Source: Escherichia coli | GTDB lineage: Bacteria > Pseudomonadota > Gammaproteobacteria > Enterobacterales > Enterobacteriaceae | NCBI RefSeq assembly: GCF_013315695.1 | Contig: NZ_CP054353.1 | Direction: 5' to 3' (one strand) | DNA: 64,000 nucleotides | Shown: piece after piece, positions 3,198 through 63,991 of the stretch | How positions within the stretch are numbered: the first letter of the stretch is position 1 | Layout of the letters: each line of letters begins with the position of its first letter | Notes under the pieces: generated by a model | Seen by the model: only the letters and a program-made list of their open reading frames with translations | What the model was told of the DNA's origin: nothing | Database searches by the model: none | Translations under genes and position numbers: made by a program

Positions 3198-4631
3198 CTA
3201 TTTCAAGCGATAGTAAAGCTCACGGTACGACTTCGCCGCGACCTGCCAGCTAAAATCCATTGCCATAGCCTGACGTTGCACAAACCGCCACAGTGAAGGA
3301 CGGGACCACAGTACAAAAGCACGTCGAATAGCCCGTAATAGCGACCAGGCATTACTATCTTCAAAGACAAACCCACTGGCGACGCCATCTGCAAGGTTCT
3401 CAAGAGAACAGTCAGAAACCGTATCAGCAAGCCCACCGGTGCGCCGCACTAACGGCAGCGTACCGTACTTCAATCCATAAAGTTGCGTTAAGCCGCACGG
3501 TTCAAAACGGCTGGGCACCAGAATGACGTCCGCGCCGCCCATAATGCGATGCGAAAATGCTTCGTGATAGCCAATCTGAACGCCCACCTGGCCGGGGTAT
3601 TCCGCTGCCGCCGCAAGGAAACCTTCCTGCAGCACCGGATCGCCCGCGCCGAGTAGCGCCAGTTGCCCGCCCTGCTCCAGAAGACCCGGTAAGGCCTCCA
3701 GCACCAGGTCGAGACCTTTCTGGCTGGTCAGACGGCTCACCACTGCAAAAAGCGGCACTTTATCGTCAACCTTAAGCCCCATTGCGATTTGTAACTGGCG
3801 CTTATTTTCCGCTTTATCTTCCAACGTATCGCGGGTGTAACGCGAGGCCAACAGTAAGTCCGTCTCTGGACTCCAGATTTTCTCGTCCACGCCGTTCAGT
3901 ACGCCGGAAAGACGCCCTTCACGGTGACGCTGTTGCAACAGACCTTCCATACCGTAGGCAAACTGCGGTTCGGTGATCTCGCGAGCGTAGGTTGGGCTGA
4001 CTGCCGTAATGTGATCGGCATAGTACAGACCGGCCTTCAGGAAAGAGATTTGTCCGTTGAATTCCAGCCCATGAATATTAAAGAATGACCATGGCAATTG
4101 GATGTCATTCATATGATGTGCATAAAACATGCCTTGATAGGCCAGGTTGTGCACAGTAAACACCGACTTCGCCGGACGCCCGCGCGCCGCCAGATACGCA
4201 GGCGCAAGACCTGCATGCCAGTCGTGCGCATGCACCACATCAGGACGCCAGAATGGGTCAAGCCCGCTGGCCATTTCTGCCCCAACCCACCCCAGCAGCG
4301 CAAAACGCAATACGTTGTCGGTATAGGCAAATAAGTTGGTATCGTGATACGGGCTTCCCGGACGATCATAGAGATGCGGCGCGTCAATCAGGTATATGCC
4401 AACCCCGTTGTAATGACCGAACAACAGCGTGATATGTCCGGCGAAGGTATCACGACGGGATACTACCTGCGCATCGGTCACGCCACGGCGAATATCGGGA
4501 AATGCAGGCAACAGTACGCGAGCGTCAACGCCGTCTGCGATTTGTGCTGCGGGTAATGCCCCAATAACATCAGCCAGACCGCCGGTTTTAAGCAGCGGGA
4601 ACATCTCTGAACATACATGTAAAACCTGCAT
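3198..4631 (-). CDS. glgA: Glycogen synthase (ADP-glucose transglucosylase)
   Basis: 477-aa ORF; N-terminal KTGGLADV motif; sits between glgC and glgP. Confidence 0.97.
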
Positions 4632-56274: not shown

Positions 56275-59078
<2,804 letters not shown>

Positions 59079-59228
59079 CACCTACCCACGCGCCGTTATT
59101 TCCTGACGGCGCAGTAAATTCCTGCCAAATATCGACTCACGTCACATTTTTTTGATCACGATTTGGTCCCTCAAAATGTGAGACGCTTCGATCCTCTTTT
59201 TCTCCCGTTCACCTACTATACGCTTGAA

Positions 59229-59254
59229 GTTGTCCATGATTGTCCATAGACAAC
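59229..59254 (+). promoter_or_regulatory. Candidate operator dyad upstream of the HutC-type regulator / PTS cluster
   Basis: GTTGTCCATG-N6-CATAGACAAC (arms match 9 of 10), 20-45 nt upstream of the regulator start; contains the GT..AC core common in GntR/HutC operators. Confidence 0.4.
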
Positions 59255-59276
59255 TGTAAATGTTCAGGTGCGCGCC

Positions 59277-60023
59277 ATGAAATCATTAAGTAAGTCGTCA
59301 CAAATACCGCTCTATCAACAAGTGGTGGAGTGGATAAGAGAAAGTATTTATACCGGGGATCTGGTGGAAGACGATCGCATTCCTTCGGAATACCAGATTA
59401 TGGATATGCTGGAAGTGAGTCGGGGAACCGTTAAAAAAGCGGTCGCCCAACTGGTAAAAGAAGGCGTGTTGATTCAGGTCCAGGGGAAGGGAACTTTTGT
59501 CAAAAAAGAGAACGTGGCATATCCGTTAGGTGAAGGATTATTGTCATTCGCGGAATCGCTGGAAAGCCAGAAAATACATTTTACCACTGAAGTTATTACG
59601 TCACGGATTGAACCGGCTAATCGTTATGTGGCAGAGAAATTAAGAATAACGCCCGGTCAGGATATTCTTTACCTTGAGCGTTTACGTTCAATTGGTGATG
59701 AAAAAGCGATGCTGATAGAGAACCGTATCAATATTGAGCTATGCCCCGGCATCGTGGAAATCGATTTTAATCAACATAATTTATTTCCAACAATAGAAAG
59801 TTTGTCGCAAAGAAAAATTCGTTACTCGGAAAGTCGCTATGCCGCGCGATTAATTGGTAATGAACGCGGTCATTTTTTAGATATCAGTGAAGATGCACCC
59901 GTTTTGCATCTGGAGCAGTTAGTCTTTTTCTCCCGAGAGTTACCCGTTGAGTTTGGCAACGTCTGGTTAAAAGGAAATAAATATTATCTGGGCACCGTGC
60001 TGCAACGGCGGGAAGTGAGTTAA
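59277..60023 (+). CDS. GntR/HutC-family transcriptional regulator (HTH plus UTRA-type effector domain)
   Basis: ATG at 59277 with AGGTG RBS (ORF track starts at GTG 59268); N-terminal HTH LVEDDRIPSEYQIMDMLEVSRGTVKKAVAQLVKEG. Confidence 0.8.
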   Translation: MKSLSKSSQIPLYQQVVEWIRESIYTGDLVEDDRIPSEYQIMDMLEVSRGTVKKAVAQLVKEGVLIQVQGKGTFVKKENVAYPLGEGLLSFAESLESQKIHFTTEVITSRIEPANRYVAEKLRITPGQDILYLERLRSIGDEKAMLIENRINIELCPGIVEIDFNQHNLFPTIESLSQRKIRYSESRYAARLIGNERGHFLDISEDAPVLHLEQLVFFSRELPVEFGNVWLKGNKYYLGTVLQRREVS

Positions 60024-60047
60024 ATACACTTTTTTATGAGGAATAAA

Positions 60048-60521
60048 ATGCAAGGCATACAGTTTCAGGAAAATTATATTCAACGACTTCCGGCAGGGTT
60101 AAGCGTTGAACAGATCATCCGTCAGTTAGCGCAACCGTTGGTTGCTGCTGAGCTGGTGGTCCCTGATTTTGCCAATCACGTACTGAAACGTGAGGCGACG
60201 TACCCAACGGGGCTGCCTACCGAACCACCGTGCGTCGCCATTCCGCACACGGACCATAAACATGTCCGGCACAATGCAATTGCCGTCGGTATTTTGCCAG
60301 AGCCGGTAGAGTTTGCCGATATGGGCGGCGACCCTGATCCCGTACCTGTCAGGGTGATTTTTTTGCTCGCCTTAAGTGAAAGTAATAAACAATTAAATGC
60401 CCTGGGCTGGATTATGGAGATGATTCAGGATACGCCCTTTATGCGCGCCCTGCTTACGATGGAAACAACAGAAATACACACAGTAATCTTAAACAAAATG
60501 AATGAACGAGGTGAAATATGA
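60048..60521 (+). CDS. PTS EIIA component, galactitol-type (EIIA-2 fold)
   Basis: ATG at 60048 with GAGGA RBS; phospho-His region CVAIPHTDHKHV; overall similar to GatA-type EIIA. Confidence 0.8.
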   Translation: MQGIQFQENYIQRLPAGLSVEQIIRQLAQPLVAAELVVPDFANHVLKREATYPTGLPTEPPCVAIPHTDHKHVRHNAIAVGILPEPVEFADMGGDPDPVPVRVIFLLALSESNKQLNALGWIMEMIQDTPFMRALLTMETTEIHTVILNKMNERGEI

Positions 60522-60799
60522 GTCAAACCATTTTATTTGTCTGCGCCACAGGTATTGCCACATCCACGGCGGTAACAGAAAAAGTCATGGAGTATTGCAA
60601 AGAGCACGGCCTTAACGTCAATTATTCCCAAACCAACGTTGCCTCTTTACCCGGTAATACCGACGGCGTAGCGCTGGTTGTTTCAACGACTAAAGTGCCT
60701 TATGAACTCGACGTCCCGGTAGTTAACGGCTTGCCGATTATTACCGGTATTGGCGAAGAGAAAGTACTGGCGCAAATTGTTTCGATTCTTAAAAAGTAA
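60518..60799 (+). CDS. PTS EIIB component, galactitol-type
   Basis: 93-aa ORF with phospho-Cys motif ILFVCATGIATS near the N-terminus; ATGA overlap with the EIIA gene. Confidence 0.8.
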   Translation: MSQTILFVCATGIATSTAVTEKVMEYCKEHGLNVNYSQTNVASLPGNTDGVALVVSTTKVPYELDVPVVNGLPIITGIGEEKVLAQIVSILKK

Positions 60800-60872
60800 T
60801 TAATAATTAATTCCAACCCACTCCATCAGGCGCTAACGCGAGGTGCGCTCTCGCCTGAAAAAGAGGTTTATT

Positions 60873-62231
60873 ATGAACGATATCGCGCATACCCTCTATA
60901 ATATTGTGCAATATATATTGGGATTTGGCCCCACGGTAATGTTGCCGTTGGTGTTATTTATTCTTGCTCTCTGTTTTAAAGTAAAACCCGCTAAAGCCTT
61001 ACGCTCGTCATTAACAGTCGGCATTGGTTTTGTCGGTATTTATGCCATTTTCGATATTCTTACCAGCAATGTCGGGCCAGCGGCCCAGGCGATGGTTGAA
61101 CGCACCGGAATTAATTTACCGGTGGTGGATTTAGGCTGGCCGCCGCTTTCCGCTATTACATGGGGTTCGCCAATTGCCCCGTTTGTTATTCCCCTGACCA
61201 TTCTGATTAATGTCGCAATGCTGGCGTTAAATAAAACCCGCACCGTTGATGTAGATATGTGGAACTACTGGCATTTTGCCCTTGCCGGTACGCTGGTTTA
61301 TTACAGCACCGGCAGCCTATTCTTTGGTTTGCTGGCGGCCGCGATTGCCGCAGTGGTGGTGCTAAAACTCGCCGACTGGTCTGCGCCACTGGTACAAAAA
61401 TACTTTGGCCTGGAAGGGATCTCATTGCCGACGCTCTCTTCGGTGGTGTTCTTCCCGGTCGGTCTGCTGGTCGACAAAATCATCGACCATATCCCTGGCC
61501 TCAATCGTATTCATATCGACCCGGAAACCGTACAGAAAAAGTTTGGCATCTTCGGCGAACCGATGATGGTTGGCACTATTCTGGGCATTCTGCTCGGCGT
61601 AATTGCCGGATACGATTTCAAAAAAGTCTTGCTGCTTGGCATCAGCATTGGCGGTGTGATGTTCATCCTGCCACGCATGGTTCGCATCCTGATGGAAGGT
61701 TTATTACCGCTGTCTGAAGCCATTAAAAAGTATCTCAATGCCAAATACCCTGACCGTGACGATCTCTATATAGGACTGGATATCGCCGTTGCCGTAGGTA
61801 ACCCGGCGATTATCTCCACCGCCCTGCTGCTGACGCCAATCTCGGTCTTTATCGCGTTTGTCCTCCCAGGTAATGAAGTCCTGCCGCTTGGCGACCTTGC
61901 CAACCTGGCGGTAATGGCGTCGATGATTGCTTTAGCCAGCCGTGGCAATATTTTCCGCACCGTTCTGGCGGCGATCCCGGTGATTATTGCCGACCTGTGG
62001 ATTGCCACTAAAATCGCGCCGTTTATTACCGGAATGGCGAAAGACGTTAACTTCAAATTTGCCGAAGGCTCCAGCGGCCAGGTTTCCAGTTTCCTTGATG
62101 GCGGTAACCCGTTCCGCTTCTGGCTGCTGGAAATCTTCAACGGCAATCTCATCGCCATTGGTCTGGTGCCGGTTATCGCCCTGATACTGTATGGCATTTT
62201 CCGAATGACGCGGAGCACGGTTTATGCCTGA
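60873..62231 (+). CDS. PTS EIIC permease, galactitol (Gat) family
   Basis: ATG at 60873 with AGAGG RBS (ORF track starts at GTG 60843); conserved blocks GPTVMLP, GIGFVGI, VDLGWPP, GEP, GNIFRT shared with GatC-type EIIC. Confidence 0.8.
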   Translation: MNDIAHTLYNIVQYILGFGPTVMLPLVLFILALCFKVKPAKALRSSLTVGIGFVGIYAIFDILTSNVGPAAQAMVERTGINLPVVDLGWPPLSAITWGSPIAPFVIPLTILINVAMLALNKTRTVDVDMWNYWHFALAGTLVYYSTGSLFFGLLAAAIAAVVVLKLADWSAPLVQKYFGLEGISLPTLSSVVFFPVGLLVDKIIDHIPGLNRIHIDPETVQKKFGIFGEPMMVGTILGILLGVIAGYDFKKVLLLGISIGGVMFILPRMVRILMEGLLPLSEAIKKYLNAKYPDRDDLYIGLDIAVAVGNPAIISTALLLTPISVFIAFVLPGNEVLPLGDLANLAVMASMIALASRGNIFRTVLAAIPVIIADLWIATKIAPFITGMAKDVNFKFAEGSSGQVSSFLDGGNPFRFWLLEIFNGNLIAIGLVPVIALILYGIFRMTRSTVYA

Positions 62232-63732
62232 TAACAGCGCAGCTATCGTTATCGATATTGGCACCACCAATTGCAAAGTCACCTGCTTTTCCTGCCTGGA
62301 TGCAACGACGTTGGGCGCGCATAAATTCGTGACGGCAAAACAGATCTCCCCACAGGGCGATGTCGATTTCGATATCGACGTCCTCTGGCAGGAGGTCCGC
62401 CAGGCAATAGCGCAACTGAGCGCCGCTTCGCCGCTGCCGGTCAGGCGGATAAGCATTGCCAGTTTTGGCGAGTCAGGGGTGTTTCTTGACGAGCATGGCG
62501 AGATCCTGACGCCAATGCTGGCATGGTATGACCGCCGCGGTGAAGAGTACCTGGCAACGCTTAGTGAGGCAGACAGTGCGGCGCTTTATGACATCTGCGG
62601 GCTACCGCTGCACAGCAATTACTCTGCCTTCAAAATGCGTTGGTTGCTGGAGCATTATCCACTGCGTAATCGCCGCGGCCTGCGTTGGCTACATGCGCCG
62701 GAAGTACTGCTCTGGCGGCTGACTGGCGAACAGCGTACGGATATCACCTTAGCCAGCCGTACGCTGTGTCTGGACGTGCGTAAAGGCGAATGGTCAGCGA
62801 AAGCGGCGGCGTTGTTACACGTTCCCTGTTCAGCATTTGCGCCATTGGTGCAGCCAGGCGAGCACGCCGGATGGGTCAGCGAGTCGCTCTGCAAAACGCT
62901 TGGGTTCTTGCAACCGGTCAGCGTGACGCTGGCCGGGCATGACCATATGGTGGGTGCGCGGGCGTTGCAGATGACGCCGGGCGATATCCTTAACTCGACG
63001 GGCACCACAGAAGGCATTCTGCAACTGGATACACAACCGACGCTGGATGAACAGGCCAAACGTGACAAGCTGGCAAACGGCTGTTATTCGCTTGCAAACC
63101 AGTTCACCCTGTTTGCGTCGCTGCCGGTGGGCGGTTTCGCTCTGGAGTGGCTGCGCAACACGTTCCGGCTAACCGATGAGGAGATCGCCGCATCACTTAC
63201 TCGCGGACATGCGGATTACCTGGCGGGGAACTGGTCGCTCGATGACATTCCCGTTTTTATTCCGCATCTTCGCGGTTCGGGTTCGCCCTATAAAAATCGC
63301 CATACCCGAGGATTATTTTATGGGCTTGGCGATACGTTAAATATCGATATGTTAATTGCCAGCGTCTCACTGGGATTAACCATGGAATTTGCCAACTGCT
63401 TCGCCTGTTTTAATGTGCCCGGCACCAGCGCGTTAAAAGTGATAGGTCCGGCAACCCATAATCCCCTTTGGCTGCAATTAAAGGCGGATATTTTACAGCG
63501 TCCGGTTGAAGCAATTGCATTTAACGAGGCGGTTTCTGTCGGAGCATTATTAACCGCCGCACCGGATATTCCACCGCCGCAAGTCACCATAGCCCAACGT
63601 TTGTTACCGAATCGGGCGAGATACCATCAATTACAGCGTTATCAGCACAAATGGAAAAGCTGGTATCAGTTGAAATTACAGCAAGAAGGCGTGATGCCAT
63701 TACATCATCGGGAGGAGCACTATGTTGAGTAA
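62224..63732 (+). CDS. FGGY-family carbohydrate kinase (rhamnulokinase/fuculokinase-like)
   Basis: 502-aa ORF; N-terminal phosphate-binding loop AIVIDIGTTNCKV and the FGGY second motif region AGHDHMVGA; overlaps the EIIC stop by 8 nt. Confidence 0.75.
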   Translation: MPDNSAAIVIDIGTTNCKVTCFSCLDATTLGAHKFVTAKQISPQGDVDFDIDVLWQEVRQAIAQLSAASPLPVRRISIASFGESGVFLDEHGEILTPMLAWYDRRGEEYLATLSEADSAALYDICGLPLHSNYSAFKMRWLLEHYPLRNRRGLRWLHAPEVLLWRLTGEQRTDITLASRTLCLDVRKGEWSAKAAALLHVPCSAFAPLVQPGEHAGWVSESLCKTLGFLQPVSVTLAGHDHMVGARALQMTPGDILNSTGTTEGILQLDTQPTLDEQAKRDKLANGCYSLANQFTLFASLPVGGFALEWLRNTFRLTDEEIAASLTRGHADYLAGNWSLDDIPVFIPHLRGSGSPYKNRHTRGLFYGLGDTLNIDMLIASVSLGLTMEFANCFACFNVPGTSALKVIGPATHNPLWLQLKADILQRPVEAIAFNEAVSVGALLTAAPDIPPPQVTIAQRLLPNRARYHQLQRYQHKWKSWYQLKLQQEGVMPLHHREEHYVE

Positions 63733-63991
63733 AACCGTGGAGGTCAGAAACAGTACTGGCCTGCATGCACGTCCGGCGGCCTGTCTGGCGAAAGCCGCCA
63801 AAAAATATAGCTGTAAAGTGACGCTGCATTATGAAGGTAATGATATTAATGCCACCAGCATGATGAATATTATGCGCGCCGGAATAAAAGGCGGAAAAAC
63901 GGTGGAAATACGCTGCGAAGGTGATGATGAAAACGAGGCAATACAAACTCTCACTACCTTATTTCGCGACCGCTTCGGTGAAGCTGAATAA
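63722..63991 (+). CDS. HPr-like phosphocarrier protein
   Basis: 89-aa ORF with the HPr active-site context NSTGLHARPAA (phospho-His); overlaps the kinase 3' end by 11 nt. Confidence 0.75.
   Translation: MLSKTVEVRNSTGLHARPAACLAKAAKKYSCKVTLHYEGNDINATSMMNIMRAGIKGGKTVEIRCEGDDENEAIQTLTTLFRDRFGEAE

Follow-up and report, generated by a model that had tools for sequence, protein, structure and literature searches.

What does a near-palindromic sequence do that stands directly in front of the regulator gene of a carbohydrate PTS operon, and which of its overlapping symmetries would be read by a protein? The question is raised by positions 59229-59254 of a 64-kb stretch of the Escherichia coli genome, here called the window, meaning the whole stretch of DNA that was analysed. 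The exact content of these positions is GTTGTCCATGATTGTCCATAGACAAC. The element lies within the 198-bp gap that separates nikR (58677-59078) from the gene of a 248-aa regulator, and it ends 23 nt ahead of the ATG of that gene (59277), which is also the RefSeq start.

The regulator gene is the first of an accessory island that in E. coli occupies the interval between nikR and yhhJ. On a single strand, and with short gaps or overlaps between the genes, the island encodes the regulator, EIIA, EIIB, EIIC, an FGGY kinase, an HPr-like protein and a class II aldolase. Of 5426 complete E. coli genomes, 1637 (~30%) contain the island with its promoter region, and the operon is likewise carried by Salmonella and by many gut and plant-associated bacteria; in Salmonella it corresponds to STM3779-3785, with the regulator orthologue STM3785, and adjoins the uhp genes. 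A HutC-type regulator had been suspected downstream of the element in a preliminary description of this DNA, and the domain content bears this out: the protein combines Pfam domains GntR (PF00392, E = 4e-16) and UTRA (PF07702, E = 1e-26), which places it in the HutC subfamily, and its residues 79-248 match PDB entry 3hfi, a 'Putative regulator' (E = 8e-109). In the literature on STM3780-3785, 3HFI and the combination GntR/FGGY/galactitol/aldolase I found no paper characterising the operon or the regulator, and the operator discussed here is apparently undescribed for this operon. The vpe PTS locus of uropathogenic E. coli was considered as the same operon and rejected, being a different island that adjoins deoK.

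Both symmetries that were originally described for the element are found exactly as claimed. A repeat finder returns an inverted repeat with arms of 11 nt (59228-59238 and 59245-59255, 91% complementary, 6 nt between them) and an exact direct repeat, TTGTCCAT, at 59230 and 59240, hence with an offset of 10 bp. Nested in the outer inverted repeat is an inner dyad of 14 bp, TTGTCCATAGACAA (59240-59253), which is formed by the second copy of the direct repeat and an inverted third copy and reads TTGT-N6-ACAA. Thus, three related boxes can be distinguished in E. coli, which are listed together with the promoter elements and genes in Table 1.

Table 1. Coordinates of the operator, predicted promoter elements and genes in the window
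Feature	Position	Strand	Evidence or remark
Composite operator with three TTGTnnAT-type boxes (predicted)	59229-59254		Sequence, repeats, orthologue conservation, top matrix match of the window
Box 1, TTGTCCAT, putative auxiliary half-site in direct orientation	59230-59237	+	Repeat finder; T4 G5 C8 A9 T10 invariant in 24 distinct sites
Box 2, TTGTCCAT, left half of inner dyad, exactly 10 bp past box 1	59240-59247	+	T13 G15 T16 A19 invariant in 24 distinct sites
Box 3, TTGTCTAT on the minus strand (ATAGACAA on the plus strand), right half of inner dyad	59246-59253	-	G22 A23 A26 invariant in 24 distinct sites
Predicted -10 hexamer TACTAT (conserved as TAnnAT)	59214-59219	+	Columns C116, T118, A119 and T123 conserved in 16-genus alignment
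Proximal CRP-like site, TGTGA-GACGCT-TCGAT	59177-59192	+	Left half alone good; centre 29 nt before the -10, about -41.5
Distal CRP-like site, ATCGA-CTCACG-TCACA	59131-59146	+	Left half degenerate in E. coli
GntR/HutC-subfamily regulator gene (248 aa), presumed binding protein	59277-60023	+	Pfam domains, PDB match, RefSeq
PTS EIIA gene	60036-60521	+	RefSeq start equals window position 60048
PTS EIIB gene	60518-60799	+	RefSeq, domain search
PTS EIIC gene, galactitol family	60843-62231	+	RefSeq start equals window position 60873
FGGY-family carbohydrate kinase gene	62224-63732	+	RefSeq, domain search
HPr-family phosphocarrier gene	63722-63991	+	Class II aldolase gene directly past the window end

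A scan with one genome per species yielded 80 loci with relatives of the regulator, from which the Collinsella loci (L056-L081, 42-43% identity) were set aside as paralogues, as they are without a PTS cluster. Far from being lost in orthologous loci, the dyad is kept in 35 of 36 orthologous promoters of the Enterobacterales, over a range of regulator identities from 66 to 100% and always 23-26 nt ahead of the start codon. The single exception is Pantoea sp. BAV 3049 (locus L021, 72% regulator identity), which has no element upstream of the regulator (3870-4000), and whose regulator may share a transcript with the gene upstream. In close orthologues (83-100% regulator identity) the element has the motif GTTGTaCATGATTGTCyATAGACAAC, and in distant ones (66-72%) the motif CTTGTkCATAsTyGTAyAyAGAyGATC. 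Within Escherichia the element is invariant, all intergenic polymorphisms lying upstream of 59207, and in an alignment of 16 genera, in which the DNA upstream of the -10 is largely scrambled, the conspicuous invariant islands are the operator, a TAnnAT hexamer and two motifs with TGTGA. The consensus of the 24 distinct sites is AGTTGTACATAGTTGTATATAGACAACT, in which the invariant positions read TG..CAT in box 1, T.GT..A in box 2 and GA..A in box 3; this consensus could be used to define the regulon in other genomes.

It had been suggested that the same dyad should be sought upstream of the EIIA gene, and it is indeed found there wherever EIIA has a promoter of its own. In more distant Enterobacterales the genes are spread over several units, one with EIIA, EIIB, EIIC, FGGY kinase and a dehydrogenase, one with regulator, aldolase and HPr, and one with a second dehydrogenase. 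In all four split-operon genera examined, a second copy of the operator precedes EIIA, with the form GGTTGAACATrGTTGTACATAGACAAs in Klebsiella (GGTTGAACATAGTTGTACATAGACAAG), Erwinia (GGTTGAACATAGTTGTACATAGACAAC) and Rahnella (GGTTGAACATGGTTGTACATAGACAAC) and a variant in Yersinia (CACTTGCACATGGTTGTATATAGACAAC). No site was found at the third unit of these genera, that of the second dehydrogenase gene.

Outside the Enterobacterales, the regulator gene is found in similar company: a gene set of regulator, EIIA/B/C, FGGY kinase and aldolase, with or without HPr, is shared by Escherichia, Gilliamella, the Enterococcus avium group, Selenomonas/Centipeda, Sporolactobacillus and Atopobiaceae. Gilliamella and Enterococcus, which lie outside the training of the matrices described below, have three to five boxes with a phasing of 10 or 20 bp directly upstream of the regulator, all of them in direct orientation. 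Gilliamella has four direct boxes in 10-bp steps (10/10/10), for example TTGTCCATAGTTGTACATAGTTGTCTATGGATGTATAT; two Enterococcus loci (L049 and L050) also have four boxes at 10/10/10, starting 3-4 nt past a TTTACA-17-TACAAT promoter, and the E. avium group has TTGTACA boxes in exact 20-bp steps (20/20/20). The site in Selenomonas, ATGTACATAGTTGTATATAGACAAGTAAGTACATCT, is a symmetric one of four boxes. The inverted box 3 is kept in E. coli, in the EIIA-promoter sites of the split operons and in Selenomonas, and the 10-bp phasing of boxes 1 and 2 recurs in every taxon examined.

I therefore read the element as the putative operator of the adjacent HutC-subfamily GntR repressor, serving both its own gene and the PTS operon, and would give this reading a probability of roughly 85%; as a type of control element, such a site is ordinary. 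An autoregulatory or operon operator had been proposed beforehand, and the orthologous enterobacterial loci, the copies at EIIA and the distant box arrays all speak in favour of it. As judged from the alignments, the conserved recognition unit is the TTGTnnAT box, of which E. coli has three, two direct and one inverted, and the outer 26-bp dyad is a by-product.

The opposite view, that the functional unit is the outer near-palindrome GTTGTCCATG-N6-CATAGACAAC bound by one symmetric dimer, with the direct repeat being incidental, draws on the 10 of 11 complementary positions of the arms in E. coli and on a symmetry of 7-9 of 10 positions in close orthologues. However, this symmetry drops to 4-6 of 10 in the distant orthologues (mean over all sites 6.3 of 10), while each box is still conserved there; in the outer arms, 16 nt separate the GT core from the AC core, far more than in the GT-N4-AC that is typical of HutC sites; the boxes of Gilliamella and Enterococcus share one orientation; and the pairing of the arms is no better than the composition of the alignment columns predicts. 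I consider this view improbable. The outer 10-N6-10 arrangement thus decays, and the inner TTGT-N6-ACAA is the better dyad, with 84.5% of cells paired against 72.7% for the outer one, and a symmetry of 6-7 of 7 in close orthologues (mean 5.4 of 7 over all sites). In the distant enterobacterial regulator promoters even box 3 drifts to AGAyGAT, and the symmetry of the inner dyad falls to 3-5 of 7, so that a model of one dimer on one palindrome does not fit everywhere.

In order to see how specific the motif is, two matrices were used. The first, of 26 columns, was trained solely on sites whose regulators show at most 72% identity; its best match in the 64-kb window is 59229 (+) with 22.2 bits, a score that was reached in none of 100 shuffles (highest shuffle score 20.4). 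The runner-up has 6.1 bits, and further copies of the element, ahead of EIIA, ahead of EIIC or elsewhere in the window, were thus not found. The second matrix, which combines all 24 distinct sites, was run against 860 kb, and in the match lists of the 18 loci that were inspected (313 kb) there was no match of at least 10 bits outside regulator and EIIA promoters. This restriction bears on the idea that the element is bound by some other, global factor such as ArcA, which recognises phased, TGT-containing direct repeats. The boxes are indeed direct repeats about one helical turn apart, and the Salmonella EIIA orthologue STM3784 was reported to be less expressed in an arcA mutant (PMC3075218). 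However, in the 18 loci inspected (313 of 860 kb) the element occurs at the regulator and EIIA promoters only, it is matched nowhere else in the window, it accompanies the regulator gene in Proteobacteria, Firmicutes and Negativicutes alike, and a TTGTnnAT box with ACAA symmetry is GntR-like, all of which makes a global factor a very unlikely occupant.

The dyad could also act mainly as RNA, as a stem-loop at the 5' terminus of the mRNA that affects stability or translation. The 65-nt leader does fold into a hairpin on the dyad (-16.1 kcal/mol, z = -2.4), the presence of the whole dyad in the transcript depending on the start site that is assumed below. However, neither dyad shows covariation above the expectation from column composition, with 72.7% of cells paired for the outer dyad against 73.2% in the shuffled expectation, and neither the distant orthologues nor the all-direct arrays retain the hairpin. 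The conservation is at the level of the sequence, which, with covariation lacking, fits recognition by a protein and not a conserved RNA stem; an RNA role seems even less likely than a global factor.

By itself, the element is statistically unremarkable with respect to both the dyad and the loose box pattern. Of inverted repeats whose 10-nt arms differ at no more than 1 position and are separated by 0-10 nt, the window has 56, against 21 +/- 5 in shuffles, and a loose cluster of three boxes is seen in 30% of shuffles. The significance of the element thus comes from its conservation across genomes and not from the frequency of dyads. That it is a chance palindrome without function, for which the abundance of similar dyads in the window could be cited, is hardly credible in view of its conservation across genera and phyla, its duplication at EIIA promoters and its top rank with an independent matrix.

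The position of the putative operator relative to the promoter is less straightforward, as a consensus scan gives no sigma-70 promoter on the plus strand and no consensus -35, nor does a terminator scan find a terminator near the site. As the promoter scan gave no plus-strand promoter, the -10 was assigned from its conservation (Table 1). The operator begins 10 nt downstream of this conserved hexamer; with a transcription start probably near 59226-59227, it would extend from about +4 to +29. The preliminary description had placed the site over the likely promoter; it does not cover the -35 or -10 hexamers, but it does cover the predicted start and the early transcribed region. Immediately ahead of the ATG, the leader ATGTTCAGGTGCGCGCC (59260-59276) is (near-)invariant in 16 genera, even though third codon positions further downstream vary. 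Here ATGTTCAG starts exactly 30 bp past box 1, in phase with the boxes, and resembles the fourth box, ATGTAyAT, of Gilliamella; another possibility is pairing with the start-codon region.

Upstream of the -10, two CRP-like sites suggest a second input. The E. coli sites (59131-59150 and 59173-59192) have 3 core mismatches each and are mirror images of each other with one good half each, detected as inverted repeat I1. For the proximal site, the AAAnTGTGA is invariant in close orthologues and its left half in 16 genera, and distant enterobacterial promoters have better CRP-like sites at the position equivalent to 59177-59192. If transcription starts where predicted, the centre of the proximal site would fall near -41.5, the location expected of TGTGA-N6-TCACA in a class II CRP-dependent promoter. 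In the other close genera the distal site deviates from TGTGA-N6-TCACA at 0-2 positions, and its centre is at a fixed 91 nt from box 1; its left half has decayed in E. coli and Citrobacter. As the centres are 46 bp apart, the distal site would be located near -87.5, outside the textbook positions for class I. Taken together, CRP-like sites that deviate at no more than 2 positions are present in 29 of 35 promoters, and in each group their distance is constant. Between the two sites, TGATC(C/A) (59154-59159), which contains GATC, is (near-)invariant in the 16-genus alignment. Another feature of the gap is a hairpin GCGCCGT-N9-ACGGCGC (59090-59112) directly 3' of the nikR stop, which is invariant in Escherichia and, being without a T-run, was not called as a terminator by the scan. 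In the Enterococcus promoters L040-L047, the -35/-10 spacer holds a putative cre-like site, TGATACCGATTACA, about 100-130 nt upstream of the regulator ATG; such an input would parallel the CRP input predicted in the Enterobacterales.

The model that follows is inferred in what it says on binding by the regulator, on stoichiometry and start site, on whether regulation is negative, on the effector and on CRP. As the cluster is co-oriented with the regulator first and has no second site, one operator would serve both autoregulation and control of the operon. The repressor would occupy boxes 1-3, probably as more than one dimer, covering about +4 to +29. One dimer could sit on the dyad of boxes 2 and 3, and a second could be anchored via box 1, an additional half-site that precedes box 2 by one helical turn (10 bp) and lies on the same side of the helix, from where this dimer would reach back to the start site and the -10. 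Bound in this way, the repressor would block initiation or promoter clearance by RNA polymerase; repression by blocking the polymerase is probable since the operator lies 10 nt past the -10. Relief could come from an intermediate of the pathway, probably a sugar phosphate, that binds the UTRA domain and causes release of the repressor, and activation would probably proceed via cAMP-CRP. This gives a testable model of regulation for an uncharacterised carbohydrate PTS operon, in which a predicted promoter is combined with a specific repressor site and a likely input from CRP. A reporter built from regulator and operator could help to find the inducer and the substrate.

How does this predicted operator compare with known ones? 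Suvorova, Korostelev and Gelfand (2015, PMC4494728) describe sites of the GntR family by the pattern NyGT-Nx-AC-Ny, and most sites of the HutC subfamily by GTMTAKAC, in which GT and AC are 4 nt apart. The inner dyad TTGTCCATAGACAA (59240-59253) conforms to the family pattern and departs from the canonical HutC core, as it reads GT-CCATAG-AC with 6 nt between GT and AC; the E. coli site is thus a variant with atypical spacing and not a canonical HutC box. The helix-turn-helix sequence of the regulator, or its group, was not found in the accessible part of the tables of that study. With HutC, TreR, NagR (YvoA) and DasR the regulator shares the wHTH and UTRA domains, NagR/YvoA and DasR being the best solved full-length relatives. 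The TTGT/ACAA half-sites are common to both kinds of operator, as in a HutC site, TTGTATAGACAA, that appears in the supplement of PMC4494728, and both are located at promoters of catabolic operons to which the regulator gene itself belongs. The differences here are the 6-nt instead of 4-nt distance between GT and AC, the third box exactly 10 bp upstream and the all-direct arrangement in some taxa.

Additional boxes are themselves not without precedent. In four HutC orthologous groups, Suvorova and co-workers found an extra box, a weaker half-site, at 7-12 nt from the palindrome centre (PMC4494728), and box 1 fits this general picture. However, whereas their extra box is weaker, box 1 is as conserved as the dyad (invariant TTG..CAT), and its first base is 16-17 nt from the dyad centre. 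Direct-repeat operators are also known in the GntR family, namely TGTATTAWTT of FarR/MngR, TGGTATT of NagQ and TGGTATAW of NanR (PMC4494728). These likewise have TGT-containing direct boxes at fixed spacing, although box sequence and spacing differ from those described here, and they lack dyad symmetry, unlike the E. coli site with its two direct boxes and one inverted box. The palindrome with additional symmetry that is reported for SdhR (PMC4494728) is similar to the four-box symmetric site of Selenomonas.

Exact 10-bp phasing together with GT-N6-AC spacing makes for a modestly unusual operator design within the GntR family. As the array arrangement is conserved in Enterobacterales, Orbales, Enterococcus and Selenomonas, one may speculate, with considerable reserve, that this regulator group as a whole binds arrays of three to five TTGTnnAT boxes, which exact steps of 10 bp (or 20 bp) place on one side of the helix, the inverted box with its GT-N6-AC spacing being optional, in contrast to the single palindrome of NagR, DasR and HutC. 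If true, this would imply cooperative binding of at least two dimers, with a flexible or asymmetric placement of the winged helices, spread over the transcription start.

The genes downstream give an indication of what the operon may be used for. The gene content suggests a ketohexose or hexitol route, in which a Gat-family PTS would deliver a sugar phosphate that the FGGY kinase converts to a bisphosphate, to be cleaved by the GatY-like aldolase. In E. coli the operon is without a dehydrogenase, which points to a ketose as the likely substrate, and in the split-operon genera the presence of two Zn-dependent dehydrogenases, with or without a SurE-like phosphatase, points to a probable polyol. 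With the gat operon of E. coli it shares the Gat-family EIIA, EIIB and EIIC and a GatY-like class II aldolase. However, the regulator of the gat operon, GatR, is of the DeoR type, whereas the operon described here has a HutC-type regulator, an FGGY kinase and an HPr-like protein, no dehydrogenase, and a different location, at nikR/yhhJ. At the far end of the island, directly past the end of the window and between the aldolase gene and yhhJ, strain SMS-3-5 carries a hicB antitoxin gene and a frameshifted hicA toxin gene (L001, 15334-15964).
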